Part shown: positions 2,485 through 34,315 of the stretch, piece after piece
How positions within the stretch are numbered: the first letter of the stretch is position 1
How the letters are laid out: each line of letters begins with the position of its first letter
Origin: Verrucomicrobiota bacterium
Lineage (GTDB): Bacteria > Verrucomicrobiota > Verrucomicrobiia > Limisphaerales > UBA11358
Direction: 5' to 3'
DNA: 64,000 nt
Assembly: GCA_050010435.1 (NCBI GenBank)
Contig: JBEKKZ010000008.1
Span: forward strand, 5,511 to 69,510
The notes under the pieces: generated by a model
Seen by the model: only the letters and a program-made list of their open reading frames with translations
Databases searched by the model: none
What the model was told of the DNA's origin: nothing
Position numbers and translations under genes: made by a program

Positions 2485-4857
2485 TCAGACGCGGGCTACT
2501 GTGGTTGCGGGAAGCGTTCGTTTCTTCCTTATCACCCGCCAGAGGATAAAGACCGTGCCCGCCATTAAAATGGAGATATACAGCAGTGCTGTCTTTCGCC
2601 ATGGCACACCATATCCAAAATCCCGGCCTTGAATCGAGGTTTGGAAGGTAATTTTGTTCTCCGCCAGAAGCGCGAGTGTGGATTCATCCGCCGGCGCGAC
2701 AAAGCCGGGGTAGTGCTTGCTCCCGGTCGGAGTAATCCAGAGCTCCTTGGAACCATTACTGTATTCGATGATCTCGAATCGAGTGTCCCGGCGTTCCGTG
2801 ATCATTTTTTGCGCTGACACTGCGGAAAGCGATTGCGTGTGCCAAGGAGTGACCAAACCCAGCAAAATGCCTGTCACGATCATCGGTAACGCAAGGCATA
2901 CGGCAACGGTCTTCGGTGACACCCACCACAGAAGGCGGGCGGCACCCGCTGTCAAAATGAAGATGCACAACAGCGATACCCACCGCCTTGGCCAAGTGTA
3001 TCCGAAATCCCGGCCTTGAACCAGCGTCTTACAAGCAATTCCTTTCTCCGCCAACAGCGCGAGCGTGGATTCGTCCGCCGGAGCAACAAAGTCGGGTCCC
3101 GCCAGAATACCCGCCCGGCTCGGCACGGTAATCCACAACTGCTTCGCTCCATCGTTTAATTGCACAACCTGGAATTGGCCGTCTTTGTAGTCGGTGATGA
3201 TTCTTTGCACCTCCGCCGCGGAAAGAGCCTGGAGAGTCCAGGGAGTGATCCGAACGAACGCCAGGGCTATCGCGAGCATTACCAGCGCAGCACACACGGT
3301 AACTATTTTCTTCTCTCTTCTCTCGACTCGCGGCGTGGTGGTTTCCTGTTGATAAAATTTTTGGGTTCCCGGTCGGCGCAGAAGCAGGACAGTGCCGGCC
3401 ACCACGATGAAGGTTGACAACAGCACCATCCATCCGCGGACGCCGCCGTTGTGGAAGTCCAGGTCTTCAATCAGAGTCGGATAAGTGATCCCCTTGTCGG
3501 TCAGTGCTGCAACCAGAGAGTCATTCAAAGGCGTCCTAAGGATGATCCGGTGATTCTCCGGGAGGGTGATTTCCAAAGACTTCGAGCCATCCCGGAATTG
3601 ACAAACCGTAAATCGGGCATCCTTGCGTTCAGAGATGATGCTCCGCGCCTCCGCCTCGGGAATGTACTTGGAGGACAACGTCCCGCCCGAGAAAAAGAGG
3701 GCAAACAGGAACGTCCCGATTATGCAAGCCGGCCCGATCATTCCCAGCGTAACCCAGAGATTGTACGATTTACTTGTCGTCCGGGTTGTTTCTACTTCGC
3801 TCCGGCGGGCGTCGCGCTTTCGCTGCCACACCCAGATGGCCAGGGCTGCTGTCACCAGCCAGTAAAATGCGGTCAACGACCACGTCTGCGTGTGGAAAAT
3901 CCAGGGATGGGAATGAATCAGCGAGTTGGGAACGAGTATTGGAGGCAGAACGAACACGAAGAAGCCGATGGCCAATGTGCGCCAGAACTGGATGATGCGT
4001 TTGCGCCCCAAGGGAGATTGCTGGCTGGTTCGCCCCATCTTGCGGCCGACCCAGCGGCCAAAGAATCCGAACACGCCAAACAGAGAAAAGAGAATCATCG
4101 CGCCACCCGTCAGGAACGTGCCCAACATTCCCGCGCCGGTTGCGGCCTTGGCGGCCGAGCCGCCCTTGGTCGCGGCAGCGGTTGCCGTCGCTGCCTTGGC
4201 CGTCGTGGCCAGCAATGGCAGGGCCGCAATCACGCCGAGCGTGAAGGTCTTGCCCGGACTGGTCTGCTTCAGCGCGCCGGCGACAAAGGCGAGGAATTGC
4301 TCCTGCAACAGCTTCCGTCCCCGTGACAACCGTTGCTTCACCGCGTCCTCGCTCAACTCCAGATCCTGCGCCACGGCCTCGATGGATTGGTGCTCGCGAT
4401 AAAACAGGACCAGCGGTTCGCGATAGATTTCCGGGATGCGTTCGAGCGAACGCCAGAGAATCGCCTTTTCCTCCTCGCTGATGACCTGGTCCGGCGGCAG
4501 CGGGTCCGGTGAGGCCCATTCATCCACCGCCGCCAGCGATTCGGCGGCATGAACCGGCTCGCGTCCCTGGCGCCGGAACTCCTTGCTGATGAGGAAACGG
4601 GTGATGCTGCACAACCAGGGCCGCAGCTTGGCCGGCTCACGCAGTTCCGCCAGTTGTTTCCAGGCGGACACGAAGGTTTCCTGGGCGAGGTCTTCGCTCT
4701 GGCTCACGTTGCCGGTGGCGCAATACGCCAGCGAGGAAATCAAGGTTTGATACCGTTCAACAATCCGGCGGAAGGCATCCCGGTTTCCGCCCAGGCTTTC
4801 GGCCACCAGCTCGGCATCGTTGAATTCCACAGTGTACATTGCTTCGGTTGTCATCAT
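2485..4857 (-). CDS. ECF (sigma-70 family) sigma factor fused to a polytopic membrane region with three tandem repeat modules
   Basis: ORF 2485..4968; start moved to ATG 4857 (MMTTEAMYTVEF). The N-terminal ~190 aa carry sigma regions 2 and 4 (FRRIVERYQTLISSLAY; EAVAQDLELSEDAVKQRLSRGRKLL). These are followed by hydrophobic segments and three repeat modules (DNA 3229-3666, 2833-3228, 2488-2832). Each module is a ~80-aa soluble domain plus TM helix/helices. Confidence 0.8.
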   Translation of the reverse strand: MMTTEAMYTVEFNDAELVAESLGGNRDAFRRIVERYQTLISSLAYCATGNVSQSEDLAQETFVSAWKQLAELREPAKLRPWLCSITRFLISKEFRRQGREPVHAAESLAAVDEWASPDPLPPDQVISEEEKAILWRSLERIPEIYREPLVLFYREHQSIEAVAQDLELSEDAVKQRLSRGRKLLQEQFLAFVAGALKQTSPGKTFTLGVIAALPLLATTAKAATATAAATKGGSAAKAATGAGMLGTFLTGGAMILFSLFGVFGFFGRWVGRKMGRTSQQSPLGRKRIIQFWRTLAIGFFVFVLPPILVPNSLIHSHPWIFHTQTWSLTAFYWLVTAALAIWVWQRKRDARRSEVETTRTTSKSYNLWVTLGMIGPACIIGTFLFALFFSGGTLSSKYIPEAEARSIISERKDARFTVCQFRDGSKSLEITLPENHRIILRTPLNDSLVAALTDKGITYPTLIEDLDFHNGGVRGWMVLLSTFIVVAGTVLLLRRPGTQKFYQQETTTPRVERREKKIVTVCAALVMLAIALAFVRITPWTLQALSAAEVQRIITDYKDGQFQVVQLNDGAKQLWITVPSRAGILAGPDFVAPADESTLALLAEKGIACKTLVQGRDFGYTWPRRWVSLLCIFILTAGAARLLWWVSPKTVAVCLALPMIVTGILLGLVTPWHTQSLSAVSAQKMITERRDTRFEIIEYSNGSKELWITPTGSKHYPGFVAPADESTLALLAENKITFQTSIQGRDFGYGVPWRKTALLYISILMAGTVFILWRVIRKKRTLPATTVARV

Positions 4858-4921
4858 ATCACCCTGTAAGCACCCGAAAAGGGCCAAAGGGTGACAAAGA
4901 AACGCATCAAAAGTGACGTCG

Positions 4922-4947
4922 TCAGATGGGGTACCGGATCTTGTTCC
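4922..4947 (-). promoter_or_regulatory. Candidate ECF-type promoter upstream of the ECF-fusion gene
   Basis: Minus-strand sense reads GGAAC (4947-4943), a 16-nt spacer, then TCTGA (4926-4922), about 65 nt upstream of ATG 4857. This resembles the RpoE-like GGAACTT-N16-TCTGA architecture. Confidence 0.3.
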
Positions 4948-4997
4948 GTGATAAGCGAGGTCAAACAACGTCCCACAGCCCGGCTGCCACGTTCAAC

Positions 4998-5032: not shown

Positions 5033-5779
5033 ATGGCCAACGCGGCTCAACTTCCGAGGCGTTTCGCATTTTACCCGGTGCTCGCGTGTTTTCTTGGCGC
5101 GCTGCTGGTCGCCGGTTGCGGGAAACCGGCTGACGCTCCCAAAAGTCAGGTCACCGCGACCACCAATTCCACGCCGCCGCCGAAGGAAGCCGGTCCTGGC
5201 CCCGGTGAGAAGGTCTGTTTCGCGTGCAAAGGGGAAGGCACGGTGCCGTGTTTTGCGCCCGGTTGTGTGGATGGACAGGTGGATTGTCCGGCGCCTTGCA
5301 TCAAATTGAACAAGGGGGTCTGGGTGAAAATCCCCGGTCGCCCCGACCCAAATGAGACCATGCAATTGATCGTGGTTGATGGAAAGCAGGTGTGGGTTAG
5401 CAGTCATCATCCGGGGGTCACTTATACGTCGCGTGCTGACGGCGGCTGGGACATGCACACCTGCCCGGTTTGTAACGGCACCGGCAAGGTGAAATGCGAT
5501 GTCTGCAAGGGAACGGGAAAAGTAACCTGTCCGGTTTGCAACGGAAAGAAGTTCATTCCAGCCGCCTGGACGCCCACGGACAATCCGTATTTCAACCGCC
5601 AGCCTGACATAATCCGGCTGGCGGACGGGCGGGTGTTGCTGGGCCGGGTGGCGGCGTCGGTGGGCGACGATCGAACGATCGTCACGCGCGACAAAAAAAT
5701 CCTGCACGTGAAAGCCTCGGACATCCTGCCCAAGGCGGGGACAAATTTCCCCGCAGCGCCGGCTTCGCCGGCGAAATGA
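5033..5779 (+). CDS. Lipoprotein with a DnaJ-type cysteine-rich (CxxCxGxG) zinc-finger-like domain, paralog 1
   Basis: Signal peptide with lipobox LLVAGC. Motifs CFACKGEG, CPVCNGTG, CDVCKGTG and CPVCNGKK, plus CFAPGC...CPAPC. Paralogous to 12888..13649. Confidence 0.75.
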   Translation: MANAAQLPRRFAFYPVLACFLGALLVAGCGKPADAPKSQVTATTNSTPPPKEAGPGPGEKVCFACKGEGTVPCFAPGCVDGQVDCPAPCIKLNKGVWVKIPGRPDPNETMQLIVVDGKQVWVSSHHPGVTYTSRADGGWDMHTCPVCNGTGKVKCDVCKGTGKVTCPVCNGKKFIPAAWTPTDNPYFNRQPDIIRLADGRVLLGRVAASVGDDRTIVTRDKKILHVKASDILPKAGTNFPAAPASPAK

Positions 5780-5925: not shown

Positions 5926-6000
5926 TTGGCTGGAAAAGACCGGAATTTCCACCCGACCGGACAATTGCCGCCCGACCCGTAGCGCCAGCCGGCATTCGCC
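5926..6000 (+). repeat. ~75-bp repeat element, copy 1
   Basis: ctggctggaaaagaccggaatttccacccgaccggacaattgccgcccgacccgtagcgccagccggcattcgcc. A near-identical copy lies at 11660-11733. Confidence 0.7.
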
Positions 6001-6166
6001 GTCATAGTTTCGTTATTCATGGGGTCGTGCTTTGGCTCACACAATCACCTGAGACCGCTGACCCCTTCCAGTCGCGTCCGGTTCACAACGGAAGGTCGAG
6101 TGCGCTGATTTCGCGCGTGGCGCACATTCACTGACGAAGATTGAAGATGGCGGACGGTGCGCCGGG

Positions 6167-25780: not shown

Positions 25781-25817
25781 ATTGTGAATAACTTTCCTAA
25801 ATTGTGAATAACTTTTC
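25781..25817 (+). promoter_or_regulatory. Two phased direct repeats ATTGTGAATAACTTTYC (20-bp period) in an AT-rich intergenic region
   Basis: attgtgaataactttcc at 25781-25797 and attgtgaataacttttc at 25801-25817. Related half-sites ttgtgagcattta (~25892) and attgtgaacatgaaatc (25912-25928). Confidence 0.4.
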
Positions 25818-26045
25818 AAATGGTAAATAGTCCTTCCGATTCCGATGTGGAATGTGGATATCCCGCCTTGTGGTCAATAACCCCGGTCATTTTGTGAGCA
25901 TTTAATGGCCAATTGTGAACATGAAATCATTGTAAGTGCTCCGGCTTCCGACGACAACAGTAGGTGTGAAAATAAGAGGCAGTGTGCCTTGGATTAAACG
26001 GCGCGCGTGCAAACGGAAAGCCGCATAAAAGCAGTTTTAGAAAAC

Positions 26046-26210
26046 ATGAAAGAAACCATATCGGTGCCCGAGCCTTCCAGCCTCGGCCTGTTGATTTCCA
26101 GCCTCGGCCTGTTAATTGGCGGGTTGGGTCTGCTGATTTGGACCCATAGCACGCGGCGGCGGAATCTTCCGATCAAACCCCGTCGGGCGTTTACTGATTT
26201 TCGTGGATGA
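26046..26210 (+). pseudogene. PEP-CTERM anchor-only remnant (deletion derivative of the next gene)
   Basis: MKETIS is followed directly by VPEPSSLGLLISSLGLLIGGLGLLIWTHSTRRRNLPIKP. The leader (25995-26045) and the downstream tactgattttcgtggatgaacac block match those of gene 26331..26963. Contains a 21-bp tandem duplication (26076-26096 and 26097-26117). Confidence 0.6.
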
Positions 26211-26330
26211 ACACGGCATTACACAACGTAGAAAAAAGGGCAGCCGATCTAACGGCGCGTGCAAGCGAAAAGCCGCATAAAAGCAGCTTTAGACAACAGG
26301 AAAGCAATTAGACAACAGGAAAGCAACCAT

Positions 26331-26963
26331 ATGAAAACTTTAGCTATGAAAACCTTCATTACCGGGCTGGTACTCGCAGGATTCGTCGTGGCGTTCGCCG
26401 GCGCGGCAAATGCACAAATGATGACTGGGTCCATGGGTGTTGCTGCGGACCCGTTTGTAACTTTCACCGGTTCTTGGACCGCCTCCTCGCTCACAATGAG
26501 CGCCATCAATCTTATTACGACCAGCGAACAAGGCACCTTTCTTGCCCTAGTGCCCTCACACAGCGACCTTACGGCTTACACCACAACAATTACTGGTCTC
26601 TCTACCAGTCCTACGGCAGAAAACATTCCTGACTTTTTCGTCTTTTCTACGCCTGACGTCACATTTGCGACTTCAGGGACAACGCCTAACAACCGGTTTG
26701 AGTTCAACTTGGCCACAATTACGGACGTGGGGGGAGGTGTTTTCACCGGAACGGGAACGCTTGTCGACACCACAGCGGCCTACGCTAACACGCCAGGTAT
26801 ATTCACCCTTAGCTTCCCTGATGATGTCTACTCATTCACTATAGCGGCAGTGCCTGAGCCTTCCAGCCTCTGCCTGTTGATTGGCGGGTTGGGTCTGCTG
26901 GTTTGGACCAATCATGCGCGTCGCCGGAATCTTCCGATTAAACCCTCTCAGCGTGGTTACTGA
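26331..26963 (+). CDS. PEP-CTERM sorting-domain protein
   Basis: ORF trimmed to ATG 26331. Signal peptide MKTLAMKTFITGLVLAGFVVAFAGAANA. C-terminal VPEPSSLCLLIGGLGLLVWTNHARRR. Confidence 0.8.
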   Translation: MKTLAMKTFITGLVLAGFVVAFAGAANAQMMTGSMGVAADPFVTFTGSWTASSLTMSAINLITTSEQGTFLALVPSHSDLTAYTTTITGLSTSPTAENIPDFFVFSTPDVTFATSGTTPNNRFEFNLATITDVGGGVFTGTGTLVDTTAAYANTPGIFTLSFPDDVYSFTIAAVPEPSSLCLLIGGLGLLVWTNHARRRNLPIKPSQRGY

Positions 26964-26972
26964 TTTTCGTGG

Positions 26973-27644
26973 ATGAACACCGCATTACACAACGGAGAGG
27001 AAGTGATGGCCAATGTTGGCCGGGCCAACGGTGGCGCACGATACATGCCCCGGTTCGACCAAGACGGTCAAGACGGGTTGGGCAACGGTTTCACATCAGC
27101 CAAAGTCGAGGAGAGCTGTTGCGGTGAGGAATTAAAGCCTTTCTGGCTGGAGGACGGGCGTTTTGGCGCGGTGTGCAGAAAGTGCGGCCAGCAGTTCGCG
27201 GACAACACTCAGGTGCGGTATGGCGGTTCCCCGTGGATTGGGGTGGATCTGGACGGGACACTGGCCCGCGACCTTGGCAGCACGCGAGGGGACGAGATTG
27301 GCAGTCCGATTGAGCCGATGCTGGTCCGCGTGCAGAAATGGATTGCCGAAGGACGCACCGTAAAAATTTTCACCGCGCGCGCCTCCTCACCCAGGCAGGT
27401 GGTGGCGATAAAAGAATGGCTCGTCAGTTGTGGATTGCCGGATTTGGAAGTGACCAATGTAAAAGACCAGCGAATGATTGAGTTGTGGGACGATCGTTGC
27501 GTGCAAGTAACGACCAATTTGGGGGAACCCATCGGCAAAAAGGCGGGATTCAGGCACCCGAGACAGGCGAGGATGCGGGAAGAAGATCGGCAGGGAATAT
27601 CCTTGGGATTGTTCAACCGTCTCAGAATTTTATTGGCTCTATAG
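26973..27644 (+). CDS. Zinc-ribbon + HAD-superfamily phosphatase-like protein
   Basis: The N-terminal part has CCGEE...CRKCGQQF. This is followed by HAD motif I IGVDLDGTLA and KIFTARASS (motif II-like). The start is uncertain. Confidence 0.55.
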   Translation: MNTALHNGEEVMANVGRANGGARYMPRFDQDGQDGLGNGFTSAKVEESCCGEELKPFWLEDGRFGAVCRKCGQQFADNTQVRYGGSPWIGVDLDGTLARDLGSTRGDEIGSPIEPMLVRVQKWIAEGRTVKIFTARASSPRQVVAIKEWLVSCGLPDLEVTNVKDQRMIELWDDRCVQVTTNLGEPIGKKAGFRHPRQARMREEDRQGISLGLFNRLRILLAL

Positions 27645-27683
27645 TTCATGATTAATTTGAACCCAAAACCATTTCTTGGCGCA

Positions 27684-27762
27684 GGAATCGTGGCGTGTGA
27701 CCAGGATTCAAGCGGGCCCCCGCAAAAAAACTAATCAAAAAAAACAAAACTCGAATCAGAAA
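27684..27762 (+). repeat. Conserved ~80-bp leader block upstream of a PEP-CTERM gene, copy 1
   Basis: ggaatcgtggcg..ggattcaagcgggcccccgcaaaaaaactaatcaaaaaaaacaaaactcgaatcagaaaa. Compare with 28480-28557. Confidence 0.65.
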
Positions 27763-27767
27763 AGTTT

Positions 27768-28364
27768 ATGAAAATTAGAACGCTTGCAATTATGGCCGCG
27801 TTGCTGGCGGGTGCCGGTTTCAGCCGGGCGGATATCACGGGTATCAACATCTGGGATTATAACAACTCTGTTTTGACTTGTTCTTATGGCCCTCTAACAG
27901 GCAGCTCCGGTAACTACCAGTATGGCATTGATGGGACGCAGCTCGCATGGGCCGTGGGGAGCATGGGAGGCACTATCTCTACGGATGGGGACCCAACGCT
28001 GCAACTCGGCGAGCAAATTAATAATGATACCGGGTCAACTTGGAACGACTACCACGTCACGATTACGATGAGCCAGTCGTTTTCATTTTCCAATGTCGGC
28101 GTGACCAATGGTGGGTGGACAGACATTGTCACCGCGCCGACCTTGGTTGGCAGCGACTGGGTTGGGCACATCGACTATTATGCCGGCAATCTGGTTCCAA
28201 ATGGCGGCACGCTGGATTTTAGTCTTTCAATAGCCTTCACTGGAACTACGAGTTTTGAGGAAGATCTGATGCCCTCCACGGTCCCCGAGCCCGGGACATT
28301 CGCACTCATGGTTTGTGGGCTGACAGGTCTGTTGGTCATGCGGCGGCGTTCGGCCATGAAATAA
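27768..28364 (+). CDS. PEP-CTERM sorting-domain protein
   Basis: Signal peptide MKIRTLAIMAALLAGAGFSRA. C-terminal VPEPGTFALMVCGLTGLLVMRRR. Confidence 0.8.
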   Translation: MKIRTLAIMAALLAGAGFSRADITGINIWDYNNSVLTCSYGPLTGSSGNYQYGIDGTQLAWAVGSMGGTISTDGDPTLQLGEQINNDTGSTWNDYHVTITMSQSFSFSNVGVTNGGWTDIVTAPTLVGSDWVGHIDYYAGNLVPNGGTLDFSLSIAFTGTTSFEEDLMPSTVPEPGTFALMVCGLTGLLVMRRRSAMK

Positions 28365-28479
28365 CCAGATAACCATTAAAACCCGCCGTATTATGCGTAT
28401 TCCAGAGAACCCAATCAATCCCATGTCACTCCTTTGGTATCTGGATTACGCACTGGCCCTCTTTTTGATTTTTGTCACC

Positions 28480-28594
28480 GGAATCCTGGCGGGCAGCCGG
28501 GATTCAAAAAAAGCCCCCGCAAAAAGCTAATCAGAAAAACAAAACTCGAATCAGAAATGTATTCAAGCAGGCCCCCGCAAAAAACCAACTGAAG
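28480..28594 (+). repeat. Leader block copy 2, plus a third partial copy of the attcaagc-ggcccccgcaaaaaa motif
   Basis: ggaatcctggcgggcagccgggattcaaaaaaagcccccgcaaaaagctaatcagaaaaacaaaactcgaatcagaaatg, followed by attcaagcaggcccccgcaaaaaacc (28561-28586). Confidence 0.65.
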
Positions 28595-28630
28595 AAAAGT
28601 TAACAACAGCAACAAAAACAGAAAGGGAAT

Positions 28631-29290
28631 ATGACAGTACGGAAATTACAACTGGCGATCATGGCGGCCGGTTTGGCCGGTGCGATGAGTGCGAGCGCCG
28701 TAACCCTTACATTTGATAATGTAGACCCCTCCCAAACGGTAAATCTCACCGATCCTTGGATCTCAAGTGGAGCAAATGCCGGAATATACAATCTGACCGT
28801 GGATGGAGTGGCGACCCCCTCATTCTGCATTGATGTAGCTGACGAAAATAACGGGAATACGTTCAGCGACTACTATTATAGCGACCTTGCATCTGCTCCG
28901 CTGGCTCCCGCCGGTCCCATGGGCGCTACTGCCGCAACCGATGTCGAGAAACTATGGGCAGCGTACTACTCTCCCTCCATGGACAGCCTGGATGCCGCAG
29001 CCCTGCAGGTGGCCATGTGGGAGGACATAGCCGCGAAGGCCATAACTCCATACAGCATCACCGTGAGTGGCAATGATCCGGTTACAACCGAAGCCACCGC
29101 CATGATAGCCAACCTCGTTAACCTCAGTGCTCAGGCAGATCTGGTGGGTTTGGTGGGTCCCAATGGCCCCAGTGGTGAACAGAGTTATGTTGTGGCCGTT
29201 CCCGAGCCCACGACGGCTGGCTGTTTTCTGCTGGGCTTGGGTGCCTTGGCTTGTTTCCTGGTGCTTGAGACAAAAAGCCGGCGCGTTTGA
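28631..29290 (+). CDS. PEP-CTERM sorting-domain protein
   Basis: Signal peptide MTVRKLQLAIMAAGLAGAMSASA. C-terminal VPEPTTAGCFLLGLGALACFLVLETKSRR. Confidence 0.8.
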   Translation: MTVRKLQLAIMAAGLAGAMSASAVTLTFDNVDPSQTVNLTDPWISSGANAGIYNLTVDGVATPSFCIDVADENNGNTFSDYYYSDLASAPLAPAGPMGATAATDVEKLWAAYYSPSMDSLDAAALQVAMWEDIAAKAITPYSITVSGNDPVTTEATAMIANLVNLSAQADLVGLVGPNGPSGEQSYVVAVPEPTTAGCFLLGLGALACFLVLETKSRRV

Positions 29291-29349
29291 TTTCTGGCAC
29301 TCGAAATAATCCACAAACTTTCAATCCAAACAAACAAAACCTATCAGTT

Positions 29350-30228
29350 ATGGAAAATTCTAAATCAGGAAACCGCCCGTGTAACGCCAAAGTGAAACCA
29401 TCCATCAGTTGCGGGTATTTGATAGCCGCATTGCTGTTAACAGCAATGGCAGGTGTTTCCCACGGTGGCACGGTTGTGGTCACCCCTGGAAATATGGACG
29501 GCTGGGCTTTCTTGACCACGGACGCCGACGGTGTCGCGGCTCCAGGAAACGGCAATACCGCTCAAATGGTCACCGGGCCCGCCACTCCGCCGCTGGGCAC
29601 AGGAAGCGCTCAATTGGGCACGGCATCGGGTCAAGGCGATACATCTTCCCAAATCCGCAACACTGCCTACGCGGGCACCCCCCTAGCTGATCTAACTGTA
29701 CTTAGCTACTCGACCTACATGACCGCCAACAACGGCCAGCAGTTTCCCTATATCGAGTTGAATATCGCCACAACCGGCTCCGGCGCGCCGGACGACATAC
29801 TCTTTTTTGAGCCGCCCTATCAGACCCCCACCAGCGGCAATCCCAACCTTCTAAATCAGGGCGATTCTGTCCTCAACACATGGCAGACATGGAATGCTTT
29901 GGCGGGCGGCTGGTGGGACAACAATGGCGTCCTGAATCCAGGTACGGGCGTTGGTTCACTCGCTGACTATCTGGTCACCTACCCGGATGCAACAATTGAA
30001 AACTCGTCGGCCGGATACGGCGGCGTCCGCCTGACCGTTGGCTTTGCCTCCCCGGAAGACAATTTCAACGGCTACGTTGATAATGTCACCATCGGCACAA
30101 CCGGTGGAACAACCACCTACGACTTTGAACCAGCCACCGTTCCCGAGCCCACGACGGCTGGCTGTTTTCTGCTGGGCTTGGGTGCCTTGGTTTATTTCCA
30201 ACGCTTTACCCAAAAGCGACGTTCCTGA
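29350..30228 (+). CDS. PEP-CTERM sorting-domain protein
   Basis: ORF 29287..30228 trimmed to ATG 29350 (MENSKSG...YLIAALLLTAMAGVSHG). C-terminal VPEPTTAGCFLLGLGALVYFQRFTQKRR. Confidence 0.75.
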   Translation: MENSKSGNRPCNAKVKPSISCGYLIAALLLTAMAGVSHGGTVVVTPGNMDGWAFLTTDADGVAAPGNGNTAQMVTGPATPPLGTGSAQLGTASGQGDTSSQIRNTAYAGTPLADLTVLSYSTYMTANNGQQFPYIELNIATTGSGAPDDILFFEPPYQTPTSGNPNLLNQGDSVLNTWQTWNALAGGWWDNNGVLNPGTGVGSLADYLVTYPDATIENSSAGYGGVRLTVGFASPEDNFNGYVDNVTIGTTGGTTTYDFEPATVPEPTTAGCFLLGLGALVYFQRFTQKRRS

Positions 30229-30409
30229 TTCAGCGTAACATTCAAAATGCAGCAACATTCATTTGTTCTGTAAAAATGGGCACCGTATTGGGTCGGTTCA
30301 AAAATAAACAACAATAGGGCAATCGTGTGAAAGAAAGACTTCTGGATTAGGCGTCGAGCCAGAAGTCGCTTTCCGCGGTGGTCGAAAACAGAAGGTAAAC
30401 ATGAAAAAA
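30139..30409 (+). repeat. Conserved anchor+leader module A (PEP-CTERM codons, stop, ~170-nt intergenic leader, next ATG)
   Basis: Near-identical by eye to 31142-31413. Starts gttcccgagcccacgacggctggctgttttctgctgggcttgggtgccttgg and ends ...gtcgaaaacagaaggtaaacatgaaaaaa. Confidence 0.8.
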
Positions 30410-31231
30410 CTACAAATAGCAATATTCGCGATCAGTTTGGCCGGCGCAATGACCGCCAGCGCGCAGGTAACCATCACCGTCGATGCGACCATGGCCCCGA
30501 ACGGTTGGGGCTCGCCATCCTACGATACTTGGGCTGCAAACGGTATTTACGCCATGGAAAACGGTTTGACTTCGTATGGCGCCGCCGGTCCCGCGCAATT
30601 CAATGTCACGACCAGCCCGTTGCCCGTCGCCGCCAACTTCGCGACTGGTTTCAACTCTTGGTTGGGGCAAGCGCCGGGGCCGTACGCAGGCGAGCTTGGT
30701 AATCGGGCCTCTTTTGTGGCCGTGATCAACGGTAATGGCAGCTTGATAAACATGAATAACTTCGGCATGACCATGAGCAGTACCGACCCGGGAAATGCGC
30801 TTGGTTGGAGCTGGCCAAATAACAGTATTCTTCCGGGTGACTGGACTTACGACGCTGGTGACATCGGACTCATTTTCAATAATGGCGTCAATACTGCCGG
30901 CGGATTCACGGTTGTCAACAGTGGCGATCCCGGGCAAATGGTCAATGAAATCATCAGCATAGGAGCAGGCAACGCTTACGCTAGTTACGACACACTCGCA
31001 ACAGGCGATGACGACCCTAATCCTAGTGATACCGATCAACAAATCCTCAACTATGATATCGCGCAAGTAGGTAGTTATGACTTCACCGGCACTTTCACGT
31101 GCGGCGATGCCAGTGGCTCCGCCACCTTTGATTTCACCGCCGTTCCCGAGCCCACGACGGCTGGCTGTTTTCTGCTGGGCTTGGGTGCCTTGGTTTGTTT
31201 CCAACGCTTTACCCAAAAGCAACGTTCCTGA
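30401..31231 (+). CDS. PEP-CTERM sorting-domain protein
   Basis: Signal peptide MKKLQIAIFAISLAGAMTASA. C-terminal VPEPTTAGCFLLGLGALVCFQRFTQKQR. Confidence 0.8.
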   Translation: MKKLQIAIFAISLAGAMTASAQVTITVDATMAPNGWGSPSYDTWAANGIYAMENGLTSYGAAGPAQFNVTTSPLPVAANFATGFNSWLGQAPGPYAGELGNRASFVAVINGNGSLINMNNFGMTMSSTDPGNALGWSWPNNSILPGDWTYDAGDIGLIFNNGVNTAGGFTVVNSGDPGQMVNEIISIGAGNAYASYDTLATGDDDPNPSDTDQQILNYDIAQVGSYDFTGTFTCGDASGSATFDFTAVPEPTTAGCFLLGLGALVCFQRFTQKQRS

Positions 31232-31413
31232 TCCAGCGGGACATTCAAAAGGCAGCAACATTCATTTGTTCTGTAAAAATGGGCACCGTATTGGGTCGGT
31301 TCAAAAATAAACAACATTAGGGCAATCGTGTGAAAGAAAGAATTCCGGATTAGATGTCGAGCCAGAAGTCGCTTTCCGCGATGGTCGAAATCAAGAAAGG
31401 AAACATGAAAAAA
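31142..31413 (+). repeat. Conserved anchor+leader module B
   Basis: See 30139-30409. A third, anchor-only copy lies at 29198-29249. Confidence 0.8.
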
Positions 31414-32220
31414 ACATTAGTAGTACTTGCGATCCTGCTGACTGCTGGTTTATCGACCAGGATTTTCGGTTCGGTCGTGGTCTTGGGACCCAGTGATGCC
31501 GCTAACGGCCCCATCAGCAACGGCAGCGCTGCCATTGATACCACAACCAGTGAGGCCATGATCGGCACAGGAGCATGGCAAGCCAACGGGACCGCAGCGT
31601 CTCAGTATTATCTTTATGCCAACGCCAACAGTTCTACCGAACTAGGTCTTGGTCAGCTCACGATCAGCGAGCTGAGCGGGCTCAGCTTTTCCACCTTTAA
31701 CACCACGGCGGTAGTGGGCAACTGGTATCTGATCATTTACACTGCTCCTTACTCTGGCGGCGAAGCATCGTGGTATGGCAATCGCCTGATACTGGAGCCA
31801 TATCTCGCGAACAATTATAGCAACCCGCTCAACCAGTGGGTTACCTTCTCAACCGCGTCCGGTGCCAATCAATTGAGGCTCGATGATAGTGGCCTTTCAG
31901 GGAACCAGGGGTTCTATGGTCAGCCGACGTTGGCAAACATCCAAGGCGGCTCGATCACCTGGAGTGCTTATACCACCGGCGGAAGTTCTACGCCTATTAA
32001 TTACGGGGGCCAGAACATCGAGGGCATTGTATTAGCAACGGGGTCAGGGTGGGCGGCCGGGTTCACTGGCTTGGTTGATAACGTTAACATTGACACTACC
32101 CAGGGAAATGTGCAATTCGATCTCGAATCCGTACCCGAGCCCACGACGATGACGATTATTATCGCGGGCGCGTTGCTGCTGCTGCCCCTGCGGATGCTGC
32201 GCAAGACCCGCACGGGCTAA
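31405..32220 (+). CDS. PEP-CTERM sorting-domain protein
   Basis: ORF trimmed to ATG 31405 (MKKTLVVLAILLTAGLSTRIFG). C-terminal VPEPTTMTIIIAGALLLLPLRMLRKTR. Confidence 0.8.
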   Translation: MKKTLVVLAILLTAGLSTRIFGSVVVLGPSDAANGPISNGSAAIDTTTSEAMIGTGAWQANGTAASQYYLYANANSSTELGLGQLTISELSGLSFSTFNTTAVVGNWYLIIYTAPYSGGEASWYGNRLILEPYLANNYSNPLNQWVTFSTASGANQLRLDDSGLSGNQGFYGQPTLANIQGGSITWSAYTTGGSSTPINYGGQNIEGIVLATGSGWAAGFTGLVDNVNIDTTQGNVQFDLESVPEPTTMTIIIAGALLLLPLRMLRKTRTG

Positions 32221-32365
32221 AAGTTGATCAAGTTGGATTTTCGAATCGTTGTTCACCAATCAGGCCGGTCCTCGAAACCGGCCTGATTATTTTGCGGAGC
32301 TTGACCGCTGCGCACAAATTCCGCGGCACCGATGTGCCCGACCTGCCGCGACCTGTCGAGCTAGT

Positions 32366-34315
32366 TCACGGATCAAGGTGGTAGCGGCGGTTCATGTAGA
32401 GTTCATCCGCCACCTGAAAAATGGCCTCGGCGTTTTTCTCCAGTTCCAAATCTTCCGGCGTGGGCTGCGGCGTCAGTTCCAAATTCACGGCGTGCGGGTT
32501 CCCGGCATAGAATTTGACCGTTTTTTGCAGGCCCAGCACCACCATCCGGTCATGGGCGAACATCCCGATGTCGCGGTTGTGATTCAGCAAGGCATGGAAT
32601 GTGTCCGGCGGGTCGTGCAAAAGGTCGCGTCCCAGAAACAGGCTTTCATAGGGACGGCCAATCAGGCCGAGAATCGTCGGCGGCACGTCCAACGAGCAGC
32701 CGGGCGCGGGGAGGCGTTGCGGTTGGGGCGCGACCGCCGGGCCGAGGATCACGAGCGGGATTTCGTAGGAAAAAATCGGGATGTCCTGGCTGCCATAGAC
32801 CCGCGCGCCATGGTCGGCCACGACGACAAAAATGGTGTTCGTCCAAAATGCCTCCGGTTTCGCGGCCTTGAAAAACTGGCCGAGACACCAGTCGGTGTAT
32901 TTGACAACGTTGTCGCGTGTGCCATTCGGGTTTTCGGGAATGCGGCCCTGGGGATAAGTGTAAGGCTTGTGGTTCGACACTGACAGGAGGGTGGCGAAGA
33001 ACGGTTTGTGGGTCTGGCTCAAGGCGCAGAATTGCCGGATGGCGCCCGCGTATAAATCCTCGTCGCTCACGCCCCAGACGGTCACGAAGGCCGGATTGGG
33101 AAAATCCTTTTGATCCACAATGCGGTCATAGCCATTGGCGGCCAGGAACGGTTTCATGTTGTCGAACATGGCGTGCCCGCCGTAGAGGAACAGCGTGTCA
33201 TAGCCGTCGCGCTTGAGCACGCGCGCAATGGTCTCGACGTTTTCGGAGCGGTCGCGGTGCACAATCGCATCGCCGGGCAGCGGTGGGAACGACGACAGCG
33301 CGCCTTCCATGCCGCGCACGGTGCGGTTGCCGGAGGCGTAAATGTTGTCGAACAATAGGCCTTCCTGCGTGACGAGCCGGTCCATTTCCGGCGTCAGCGT
33401 GTTCGTGCGGCCGAGGCAGCCCCAGAATTCCGAGCCGAGGCTCTCTTCGAGCAAAATCACGACGTTCAAGCGCGGGCGATTGGGATCGCCGGAAATTTTT
33501 CGTTCGATGCTGAAATTATCGCCGATGAAGGTCGCATTGGTCGAGGCCAGCAGGCGATGCACGCGGGCGTAGGCTTCATCTCGCGGCAGGGTTTTGTAAA
33601 AGGTGGGATAATCGAGATTGCGCGTCCACGCGGCGGCGAAAAAGGAGAGCGCGCCATTGTTGGCAATTTCGTTGAGCGTGCGGTCTTCGCTGACGTGCGG
33701 CGGATTCAAATTGGCCGTCCGGCTCAGGCCGGCAAACAAAATCAACGCGCTGGCGAACCAGAGAAACCGCGTTCCGATCCAGACCGGCTTCATCCACATT
33801 GTTTTGAACAATCGCCCTGCCAGCCACGTCCACGCCGCGCCGATGAACAGGCAGCCGGCGACGACCGCCGGGACGGGATAGGCGTCCCAGATGTTGATGA
33901 ACACCTCGCGCGGATAAATCAGATAGTCCACGGCGACGGGATTGAAGCGCGATTTGAATTCCGCGAAGAAATAAAATTCCGCCGCGAGCAAAAACACCTG
34001 CACGGCCCAGAGCAGGGTCATGAAAAACCGGAACCAGAGGCGGTGGATGAGCGACGCGAACGGGCGGTTGCCGACGATGAAACACCAAAACAGCGGCGGC
34101 AGCATGAACCACAGCGCGGCGATGACGTCGCGGTAAAAGCCGGCGGCAAAGGCCAGCAGAATGTTCCAGGGCGCGGCGGAAGGCGGGCCGAATTGAAGCA
34201 GCAACACGAGACGCAAAACGGTGAAGGCGGCCAGCAGCGATACAGAACAGAACACGAGGAAGCCATAGCGCGAGCGCGGTTTTTTCTGAAAACGCGATGC
34301 TGGATTTTTGTTCAT
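32366..34315 (-). CDS. LTA-synthase/sulfatase-family membrane protein (phosphoglycerol/phosphoethanolamine transferase-like)
   Basis: The N-terminal ~200 aa are polytopic. The extracytoplasmic sulfatase-like domain has VVILLEESLG, NIYASGNRTVRG and SNHKPY. Confidence 0.8.
   Translation of the reverse strand: MNKNPASRFQKKPRSRYGFLVFCSVSLLAAFTVLRLVLLLQFGPPSAAPWNILLAFAAGFYRDVIAALWFMLPPLFWCFIVGNRPFASLIHRLWFRFFMTLLWAVQVFLLAAEFYFFAEFKSRFNPVAVDYLIYPREVFINIWDAYPVPAVVAGCLFIGAAWTWLAGRLFKTMWMKPVWIGTRFLWFASALILFAGLSRTANLNPPHVSEDRTLNEIANNGALSFFAAAWTRNLDYPTFYKTLPRDEAYARVHRLLASTNATFIGDNFSIERKISGDPNRPRLNVVILLEESLGSEFWGCLGRTNTLTPEMDRLVTQEGLLFDNIYASGNRTVRGMEGALSSFPPLPGDAIVHRDRSENVETIARVLKRDGYDTLFLYGGHAMFDNMKPFLAANGYDRIVDQKDFPNPAFVTVWGVSDEDLYAGAIRQFCALSQTHKPFFATLLSVSNHKPYTYPQGRIPENPNGTRDNVVKYTDWCLGQFFKAAKPEAFWTNTIFVVVADHGARVYGSQDIPIFSYEIPLVILGPAVAPQPQRLPAPGCSLDVPPTILGLIGRPYESLFLGRDLLHDPPDTFHALLNHNRDIGMFAHDRMVVLGLQKTVKFYAGNPHAVNLELTPQPTPEDLELEKNAEAIFQVADELYMNRRYHLDP

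Follow-up and report, generated by a model that had tools for sequence, protein, structure and literature searches.

In the vsp, vlp and vsa loci of Mycoplasma, surface protein genes have near-identical 5′ leader and signal-peptide regions and their exposed parts are varied by recombination; this variation, programmed and of high frequency, arises by site-specific inversion or by slippage at promoters and concerns internal repeats. Soil, sediment and biofilm bacteria have PEP-CTERM proteins in abundance, yet to our knowledge little is known of how PEP-CTERM repertoires evolve. In Staphylococcus aureus, the lpl cluster of the nuSa-alpha island consists of tandem lipoprotein-like paralogues in which a conserved segment serves as the recombination site, and strain comparisons of this cluster revealed deletions, apparent conversions, translocations and substitutions (Tsuru & Kobayashi 2008, PMC2568036). 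In Group A Streptococcus, the neighbouring sortase-anchored M and M-like genes emm, mrp and enn recombine into fused chimeras, according to the abstracts of two studies (PMC6321872, PMC9993116). For PEP-CTERM genes themselves, an upstream element composed of a motif 1 and a sigma-54 −24/−12 site, under PrsK/PrsR control, has been described in Proteobacteria, and PEP-CTERM genes were noted to form single-gene units for the most part, with long non-coding regions before them (Haft et al. 2006, PMC1569441). In a set of 13 papers that pair PEP-CTERM with homologous recombination, titles and abstracts give no apparent account of natural recombination between PEP-CTERM genes. Here we analyze a tandem array of PEP-CTERM genes from an uncultured peat-bog population of Limisphaerales (Verrucomicrobiota), contained in a 64,000-nucleotide (nt) stretch of contig JBEKKZ010000008.1 (hereafter the window, to whose numbering coordinates refer). 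In this array, a module made of the sorting-signal codons of one gene, a leader and the start of the next gene is repeated between differing ectodomains, and we consider it quite likely that homologous recombination and gene conversion at this conserved anchor + leader module give rise to a strain-diversifying array of "express-and-anchor slots".

The array occupies 26.0–32.2 kb of the window and comprises seven open reading frames (ORFs) on the same strand with PEP-CTERM-type tails; a gene of this array would encode a Sec signal peptide, a variable ectodomain of ~190–260 amino acids (a.a.) and a C-terminal PEP-CTERM anchor. By repeat search, we noted a 268-nt ungapped direct repeat of 93% identity (30123–30390 versus 31126–31393), which extends to 30409/31413 when one 1-nt indel is allowed (blastn, 93.9% over 277 nt, E = 8e-120). 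A first-pass annotation of the sequence had described near-identical blocks at 30139–30409 and 31142–31413, and these are real, comprising tail, spacer and next start at ~93% identity. Each module contains the 3′-terminal 30 codons of one gene (VPEPTTAGCFLLGLGALV[Y/C]FQRFTQK[R/Q]RS and the stop codon), a spacer, and the ATGAAAAAA of the next gene. The first copy (30137–30409, + strand) connects gene D (29350–30228, +) to gene E (30401–31231, +, 276 a.a.), with the anchor at 30139–30228, the leader at 30229–30400 and then the start of E, while the second (31139–31413, +) connects E to gene F (31405–32220, +), with the anchor at 31142–31231, the leader at 31232–31404 and the start of F. The two spacers measure 172 nt (30229–30400) and 173 nt (31232–31404), with start codons at 30401 and 31405. 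The left edge of the module is sharp, falling at the codon preceding VPEP (30136/31139), and the right edge lies just past ATGAAAAAA.

The anchors of D and E, which we refer to as canonical, differ at 2/90 nt, both changes altering the amino acid and none being synonymous, and a central spacer stretch of 64 nt is identical between the two window copies. A partial copy is found in the preceding PEP-CTERM gene, C (28631–29290, +), whose anchor follows the canonical sequence over 64 nt before diverging into a hybrid tail. This copy of the first 64 nt of the canonical anchor (29195–29258, +, 95–98% identical) had been recorded as a ~52-bp recurrence at 29198–29249; it is present but longer than first reported. 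Gene F, a PEP-CTERM gene with a terminal-type anchor, has in common only a 20-nt VPEPTT-coding stretch (32129–32148), situated at the junction of its ectodomain and terminal anchor.

Among relatives, ectodomain cassettes are present, absent or replaced between the same flanks. The comparison data are short-read metagenome contigs or metagenome-assembled genomes (MAGs) throughout, and the relatives with names are Verrucomicrobiae or Limisphaerales MAGs from peat and bog samples (fetched loci are numbered with the prefix L). In the sister-strain contigs L008, L009 and L010, whose flanks are 97–98% identical to those of the window, the order is A0-A′-X-B-C-E-F-G305, followed by the sulfatase gene. 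The window counterparts upstream of C are A0 (26046–26210, +), a 54-a.a. PEP-CTERM stub without an ectodomain; A (26331–26963, +), a PEP-CTERM gene with an A-type anchor from its VPEP (26850); X (26973–27644), a non-PEP gene interrupting the array; and B (27768–28364, +), a PEP-CTERM gene with a B-type anchor (VPEPGTFALMVCGLTGLLVMRRRSAMK). Window positions 26850–29258 align with L008 4825–7236 and positions 30137–32148 with L008 7174–9132. Given that the 63-nt overlap of these two alignments (L008 7174–7236) is the anchor repeat, the 941-nt D cassette (29259–30136, +, plus part of the repeat), which carries the odd tail end of C, a 59-nt spacer, and the signal peptide and ectodomain of D, is an indel with its junction in the repeat. 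Such an indel is what one would expect if the C and D anchors had undergone unequal crossing-over, or if the cassette had been inserted by the reverse event, and the partial copy at 29195–29258 would then be the left crossover zone. The D cassette had no match in any syntenic relative and is present in the window-type strain only. In L008, C has the full canonical anchor and leader directly before E, and the module at this C/E junction is 96.4% identical to the second module copy of the window; the C orthologues in L008, L020, L026 and L029 all have the full canonical tail and leader followed by E.

Replacements are seen at further positions of the array. In L008, the leader and ectodomain of A (26222–26849) are replaced by unrelated sequence and homology resumes exactly at VPEP (26850), while homology with both L008 and L016 ends at 32148, directly past VPEPTT. 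The VPEPTT 20-mer (32129–32148) forms the junction in three comparisons: L016/L032 have an extra canonical-type tail, a third full leader and a G′ cassette (251 a.a.) before the same terminal anchor; L011 has a C-type ectodomain fused to the terminal anchor at the 20-mer; and in L008, F ends in a canonical tail, with one further gene after it. Breakpoints between strains fall in the conserved segment (29258/30137, 26850 and 32148). There are also two stubs without an ectodomain, in which a start codon and a few further codons lead straight into an anchor. L011 retains a 45-a.a. stub with a canonical anchor (reverse strand, 5984–6121), and A0 consists of a start codon, 5 codons and an A-type anchor in which 21 nt are duplicated internally (26064/26085). 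By repeat search, A0 and A are 86–95% alike in leader, tail and trailer, and the A0 stub is unchanged in L008 and L026 and differs by one substitution in L029. Both are probably "solo module" remnants of cassette loss, by-products that recombination between modules would be expected to leave. Separately, we noted that G305 lies next to the sulfatase gene in some relatives (L008 9252–10169; L013, reverse strand, 3420–4280) and contains ~30-a.a. repeats (…LNDPLGVxGTxAYGIDGNNIVGSY…) and its own anchor (VPEPSTLTLAGLGGLSLLLFRRRKS).

Ectodomains and anchors are also re-paired. The terminal anchor (MTIIIAGALLLLPLRMLRKTRTG) and its spacer (32149–32365, +) form the fixed right end of the array, adjoining the sulfatase-family gene, and this anchor stands beside the sulfatase gene in L011 (91%), L016 (84%) and L022 behind three different ectodomains. 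The F orthologues in L008 and L016 carry canonical-type and not terminal anchors. The A′ ectodomain is joined to an A-type anchor in L008, L011 and L026 and to a B-type anchor in L014 and L027; C is found with canonical, hybrid or terminal anchors; the L007 orthologue of E (84% identical) lacks the leader and ends in an unrelated anchor; and an anchor variant ...VGCFLLGLGALACGRHFSKNRRSR with its own trailer occurs after F in L016 and after C in L027. Gene order differs as well, with an A-like cassette placed after C in L013 and L014, and the order X-B-A′-C-E, then unrelated PEP-CTERM genes, in L027. Ectodomain, tail, leader, ribosome-binding site (RBS) and downstream-gene types combine incongruently, as assessed by identity clustering and not by formal phylogenetic tests.

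The distribution of the module follows that of the array. A survey with back-translated PEPTTAGCFLLGLGA, using one genome per species (185,579 species), recovered the canonical anchor in 8 stretches only, from 7 species-level MAGs of peat/bog Verrucomicrobiota with 1–3 copies each, and the stretches checked by synteny (L011, L013–L017) all map to this locus. Judging from this distribution, the canonical anchor is a feature of this locus and not a requirement of the sorting machinery. Four anchor types (A-type; B-type; canonical in C, D and E; terminal in F) coexist in the array, so exosortase recognition does not need the canonical sequence. A search with a 20-nt leader core returned 14 metagenome stretches, all within such arrays, and in the fetched loci the core stands at ~18 distinct junctions, with at least 6 upstream and at least 5 downstream cassette types; an nhmmer leader profile run against all fetched loci found no more-diverged full copies. 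With ~18 junctions and variable cassettes among the relatives, the blocks are neither unique to the two window junctions nor part of a fixed gene order with diverged leaders. The first-pass description of the blocks as portable homology arms around variable cassettes, a layout that favors shuffling, expansion and contraction, is supported by the differing cassette content between the same flanks and by the breakpoints within the repeat.

The leaders show a pattern of concerted evolution, in that copies from the same genome resemble each other more closely than they do the copies at corresponding positions in other genomes. When seven leaders of three genomes were aligned, within-genome copies matched over the 3′ part at 90/93 positions in L016, 87/94 in the window and 88/94 in L008, compared to 83/94 and 82/94 for the positional counterparts of the window and L016. 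The last ~30 nt before the ATG sort by downstream gene (E/G′ type versus F type), and the C/E leader of L008 is a recombinant, given that an F-type end stands before E. The three window anchors do not differ at any synonymous site within their first 51 nt, whereas the E orthologues in L008, L022, L016 and L027 share a different synonymous variant (CCT-ACx-ACx-GCC), which indicates a probable conversion of the E anchor in the window lineage. Identity between the window and L029 changes by segment, from 97–100% in the flanks to 82% in the C ectodomain, 99% in the D/E leader, 87% in E and 99% in F; and E of the window is closest to E of L016 (97%), yet the L016 flank is 92% identical. Given these mosaic identities, the cassettes have separate histories.

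The reading we favor is that the length and similarity of the modules (identical runs of 58–64 nt) suffice for RecA-type homologous recombination, such that unequal crossing-over, gene conversion and exchange with DNA of related strains would delete, insert, replace and re-pair ectodomain cassettes. The spacer of the module would hold a promoter (an invariant stretch of 48 nt containing TGTAAAAAT), a hairpin-bearing 5′ leader, the RBS and an ATG-AAA-AAA start, and every event would leave a cassette with a promoter and start before it and an anchor behind it. Purifying selection on the anchor peptide and the promoter block would keep the modules recombinable, and recombination would homogenize them locally. 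The enzymology would be that of general homologous recombination, the products would be exosortase-sorted surface proteins, and the benefit may lie in strain-level diversification of the cell surface (e.g., in glycan binding or in escape from phages or grazers).

Several observations weigh against this reading or narrow it. Over the first 51 nt of the anchor, the mean difference is 3.6 nt for within-contig pairs and 4.1 nt for between-contig pairs, and homogenization is not general; the anchor peptide is also under purifying selection, so that some of the DNA similarity is due to selection and not to conversion. No exosortase was found among the scanned membrane and large ORFs of the window or among precomputed Pfam matches within 10 kb on either side. 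A two-hexamer sigma-70 scan of 25.5–32.5 kb gave counts not above those of shuffled sequences and placed no promoter in the leaders. The seven contigs of the window-type strain show no structural variants. Finally, strain-chimeric joins at shared repeats could mimic mosaics, a concern which the recurrence of arrangements mitigates but does not remove.

Of the seven same-strain contigs, six carry the exact E protein (L001–L006; being of one strain, these were uninformative on rearrangement) and one was added by a DNA scan, and they present the window arrangement in 7 independent metagenome assemblies at 99.6–100% identity with no module differences. Since the arrangement recurs in separate assemblies, the module repeat is not an assembly accident, and since no variants occur among these contigs, the rearrangement is evolutionary and not a matter of frequent switching. 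Every variant arrangement likewise recurs in at least 2 independent assemblies. As a side observation, one of the same-strain contigs, L005, is otherwise 99.9% identical and has 19/20 of its differences within 62 nt of gene B (28001–28062), and its gene B differs in the 5′ part (203 versus 198 a.a.); this cluster looks like another mosaic breakpoint, here inside an ectodomain.

All seven tails have the tripartite PEP-CTERM signal, with VPEP, ~17–20 hydrophobic residues and an R/K-rich end. In searches with profile hidden Markov models, A passed both models (TIGR02595, 18.1 with a cut-off of 16; PF07589, 24.3 with a cut-off of 20.7) and B passed TIGR02595 (19.9, cut-off 16), while C, D and E scored 18.9, 19.8 and 17.6 for PF07589 (cut-off 20.7) and were not listed for TIGR02595 at E ≤ 0.01. 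The profile search of gene F gave no TIGR02595 or PF07589 match, and several E orthologues have a precomputed PF07589 assignment. The N-termini of A–F, as read from the sequence, have the features of signal peptides, namely MKK or MKI, a hydrophobic core and an A-x-A-like site.

The ectodomains had been called unrelated in the first-pass annotation, which holds in part. Repeat search and blastn found no nucleotide similarity among the ectodomain-coding DNA between the blocks, and profiles of D and E (34–35 homologues each) match only over the last ~50 columns, which correspond to the final beta-strands and the anchor. The AlphaFold models of D and E are confident (predicted local distance difference test scores of 87 and 83, respectively) and differ in fold. 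The D model resembles the jelly rolls of carbohydrate-binding modules (CBM11, CBM4 and CBM30; best Foldseek E = 9e-4, target TM-scores of 0.54–0.58), so a CBM-like jelly roll is the predicted fold of its ectodomain. That of E is a predicted beta-sandwich, for which a fold search of the PDB returned no confident match and just weak, generic Ig-like or beta-sandwich ones. The claim does not extend to all pairs: D shows 29% identity over 294 a.a. (E = 3e-17) to the L016 orthologue of F, which makes F a distant paralogue of D, and C and E have a common signal peptide and ~100 N-terminal residues at 36% identity.

D belongs to an uncharacterized PEP-CTERM family without a Pfam model (>730 matches at E ≤ 1e-5), with the strongly conserved motifs NNGQQFPYIEL, FFEPPYQ and GGWWDNN and with 50–60% identity to proteins from MAGs of Alphaproteobacteria and Chromatiales (Alpha- and Gammaproteobacteria). 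The family members examined carry the anchors of their own lineages, which differ from the canonical one; the closest homologue of D is 76% identical and has another context and another anchor, and the D ectodomain is 81% identical at the DNA level to an unlinked homologue in L033/L034. One could extend our reading to propose that the module is a dedicated "docking slot" by which foreign ectodomains are captured and at once expressed and anchored at the surface, with the 48-nt block and hairpin as a lineage-specific control element co-regulating all slots. D would be the example, given that its jelly-roll family is 50–60% shared with Alpha- and Gammaproteobacteria and yet it carries the local anchor. 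We regard this extension as doubtful; if it were true, the array would be a natural recombination-driven surface-display platform and not a passively drifting cluster of paralogues.

The leader contains an invariant block of 48 nt (30260–30307, twin 31263–31310, +; leader columns 38–85) with 0 substitutions in the six full copies obtained from protein searches. Given that ~27% of the other columns vary, the chance of 48 invariant columns is estimated at 0.73^48, or ~3e-7. Inside the block is an extended −10-like sequence, TGTAAAAAT (30269–30277). We hold the chances about even that the block is a promoter or operator, each slot being transcribed on its own; as a promoter, it would fit the organization of PEP-CTERM genes as single-gene units behind long non-coding regions (PMC1569441). 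A sigma-54 promoter was ruled out, as neither leader has GG-N10-GC and the best match (GGGCACCGTATTGGGT) is without the −12 GC. A terminator consensus scan of 25.5–32.5 kb gave counts not above shuffles, with no hairpin and T-run after the stop codons.

Natural variants of the block exist. The F leader of L008 is without it, and the E/F leader in L026 (minus strand) and L029 (~5620–5746) has a ~118-nt insertion that splits the block between CATTTGTT and CTGTAAAAATGGG, just 5′ of TGTAAAAAT. The insertion has terminal inverted repeats (GAGACCTCTG ... CAGAGGTCTC), widens the interval between modules from 1003 to 1121 nt, and resembles a small miniature inverted-repeat transposable element. A 13-codon upstream ORF (MGTVLGRFKNKQQ) starts in the invariant block at 30275–30316 and 31278–31319. 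In the L016 copies its stop is lost, and at least one copy reads on to just before the downstream start. We rejected it as coding, given the lack of a Shine-Dalgarno sequence, the unconserved stop in L016 and the lack of synonymous-type variation in the block, and its translation is improbable. Gene calls of the source pipelines with an extended N-terminus (288/293 a.a., starting in the hairpin) were likewise rejected, as their frame is broken by a 1-nt indel in the D/E leader of the window.

A different account of the spacer is that it is kept chiefly as a structured cis-regulatory RNA of the 5′ untranslated region (a riboswitch, thermosensor or small RNA target), which would be compatible with recombination. 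It draws on a long imperfect hairpin of 21 pairs (30318–30383, twin 31321–31386, +) just 5′ of the RBS, which is retained in 17 leader copies with 96.6% of cells paired, compared to 27–63% when the partner is slid; several of the changes are G-U compatible and, for one window copy, the fold is better than those of its shuffled versions (z = −2.45). For its counterpart in the window, z was +0.26, and Rfam 15 yielded only two tRNAs in the whole window at gathering thresholds and nothing at E ≤ 1 over 25.9–32.4 kb. Among the 17 copies there is one compensatory change, in one sequence; covariation, analyzed with 7 and then 17 copies, was not significant, with shuffle controls not exceeded (68/500 and 58/500), and pair-breaking and wobble-compatible changes are about equally frequent (as counted from a per-pair table). 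Moreover, conservation within the leader peaks in the unstructured central block and not in the hairpin, and this 48-nt block resembles promoter or operator DNA more than it does a structured RNA. A structured RNA in the leader is thus possible but unsupported, the covariation analysis having added nothing beyond the retention of pairing. The shared 5′ untranslated-region regulatory element proposed from the sequence at first pass is undemonstrated, and we consider it decidedly unlikely that an RNA element is what chiefly maintains the spacer.

Were selection alone responsible, an anchor suited to the exosortase and a shared promoter would have been kept on static, old duplications, with no recombination between copies. 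The anchor peptide VPEPTTAGCFLLGLGAL is indeed kept over many synonymous DNA variants and on many unrelated ectodomains in the databases, and the invariance of the 48-nt leader block points the same way. Selection of this kind would not account for window anchors that are identical even at synonymous sites, together with an identical 64-nt stretch of non-coding spacer, nor for four anchor types in one array, genome-specific variants shared among leaders, cassette indel breakpoints inside the repeat, and incongruent combinations of ectodomain, anchor and leader; we find it very unlikely. A dedicated site-specific cassette system of the integron or shufflon kind, with the hairpin spacer as the recombinase site, is suggested by same-strand cassettes parted by a repeated element with an imperfect hairpin. 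No integrase or recombinase was found nearby, the called genes within 10 kb matching only HNH_2, DUF2148, sulfatase, MreB/C, PBP2, RodA and RNase E/G in Pfam; the breakpoints vary (the 63-nt anchor overlap, the VPEPTT 20-mer, ~30 nt before the ATG), junctions fall within coding sequence, and the cassettes appear to have their own leader and start, unlike promoterless integron cassettes. Integron-type cassettes were rejected on these grounds, and any such system seems to us scarcely credible. Silent-cassette antigenic variation of the pilE/pilS or vlsE type was also rejected, as all genes are complete ORFs with a start, signal peptide and anchor and 0 structural variants occur in 7 contigs. The same degree of improbability as for a site-specific system attaches to the view that the repeat or the variant orders are metagenome mis-joins. 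Mixed-strain short-read assemblies are involved, and repeats of 60–270 nt are classic sites of chimeric joins; against this, the window type is found in 7 independent assemblies, the L008 type in 3, and the L026/L029 and L016/L032 types in 2 each, and module copies differ at ~7% of positions and are hence distinguishable within reads.

The remaining features of the locus are as follows. To the right of the array lies the sulfatase/phosphoglycerol-transferase-like gene (32366–34315, −), followed by mreB-mreC-pbp2-rodA, and the left flank is a 590-a.a. gene with no family match. Gene X has a DxDGT motif typical of haloacid dehalogenase (HAD)-type hydrolases and, by this motif, looks like one. 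The array has a second repeat, in that the leaders of B and C belong to a separate family (GGATTCAAGCGGGCCCCCGCAAAAAAACTAATCA...), present once before B (27706–27765) and twice before C (28502–28560 and 28561–28598), with a short GC hairpin and an A-run after it. Two tandem 20-nt units (ATTGTGAATAACTTTCCTAA / ATTGTGAATAACTTTTCAAA; 25781–25820) in the extended non-coding region 5′ of the array may be an operator-like site. Elsewhere in the window, an 827-a.a. ORF (2485–4968, minus strand) combines N-terminal extracytoplasmic-function-type sigma-70 regions 2 and 4 with a long following region of ~8 predicted membrane helices, an unusual fusion of a sigma factor and a membrane domain.

If homologous recombination at the anchor + leader module is the process at work, the codons of the sorting signal and the control region beside them serve as handles for recombination, whereby ectodomains are swapped and expression and anchoring stay. 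This would explain the locus-specific look of the anchors and leads one to expect that strain-level variation, and breaks in metagenome assembly and binning, are concentrated in such arrays. The compact pair of promoter-leader-start and anchor would also be a candidate surface-display cassette for Verrucomicrobiota. The process is of a known type, as exemplified by lpl and emm/enn, and specialists in surface protein evolution should find it well supported and useful but not startling.

Of the systems introduced above, the Mycoplasma vsp, vlp and vsa loci differ in having the conserved part at the 5′ end only, and the present array gives no sign of their high-frequency switching. The proteobacterial PEP-CTERM element is similar in that single-gene PEP-CTERM units are preceded by long non-coding regions sharing conserved DNA. 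It was, however, found only in Proteobacteria (PMC1569441), the leaders here lack GG-N10-GC, and the element is a short motif, whereas the module described here spans ~270 nt at >90% identity and includes coding sequence. With the emm/enn genes, as far as their abstracts describe them, the array has in common adjacent surface genes with variable exposed parts and anchor-encoding 3′ ends, and the emm-enn fusion of emm4 parallels both the fusion of the C ectodomain to the terminal anchor in L011 and the D-cassette indel. The differences, within the same abstracts, are an LPXTG/sortase anchor in place of a PEP-CTERM/exosortase one, M proteins that are coiled coils homologous throughout and belong to a pathogen under immune selection, and no mention of a shared intergenic leader module (PMC6321872, PMC9993116). 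The closest analogue is the lpl cluster, likewise composed of tandem same-strand surface paralogues with a conserved nucleotide segment in each unit, and there too the evolutionary unit spans two adjacent genes and their spacer (PMC2568036). The array also shows the hallmarks of the lpl type, with same-strand tandem paralogues, between-strain breakpoints in the conserved segment and incongruent histories of the flanking parts. It differs in phylum, type of sorting signal and habitat (peat here), and in the layout of the unit: the conserved segment of lpl is central to the ORF and the variable unit is the 3′ end, spacer and 5′ end, whereas here the conserved unit is the 3′ end (the sorting signal), spacer and start codon, and the variable part is the ectodomain.

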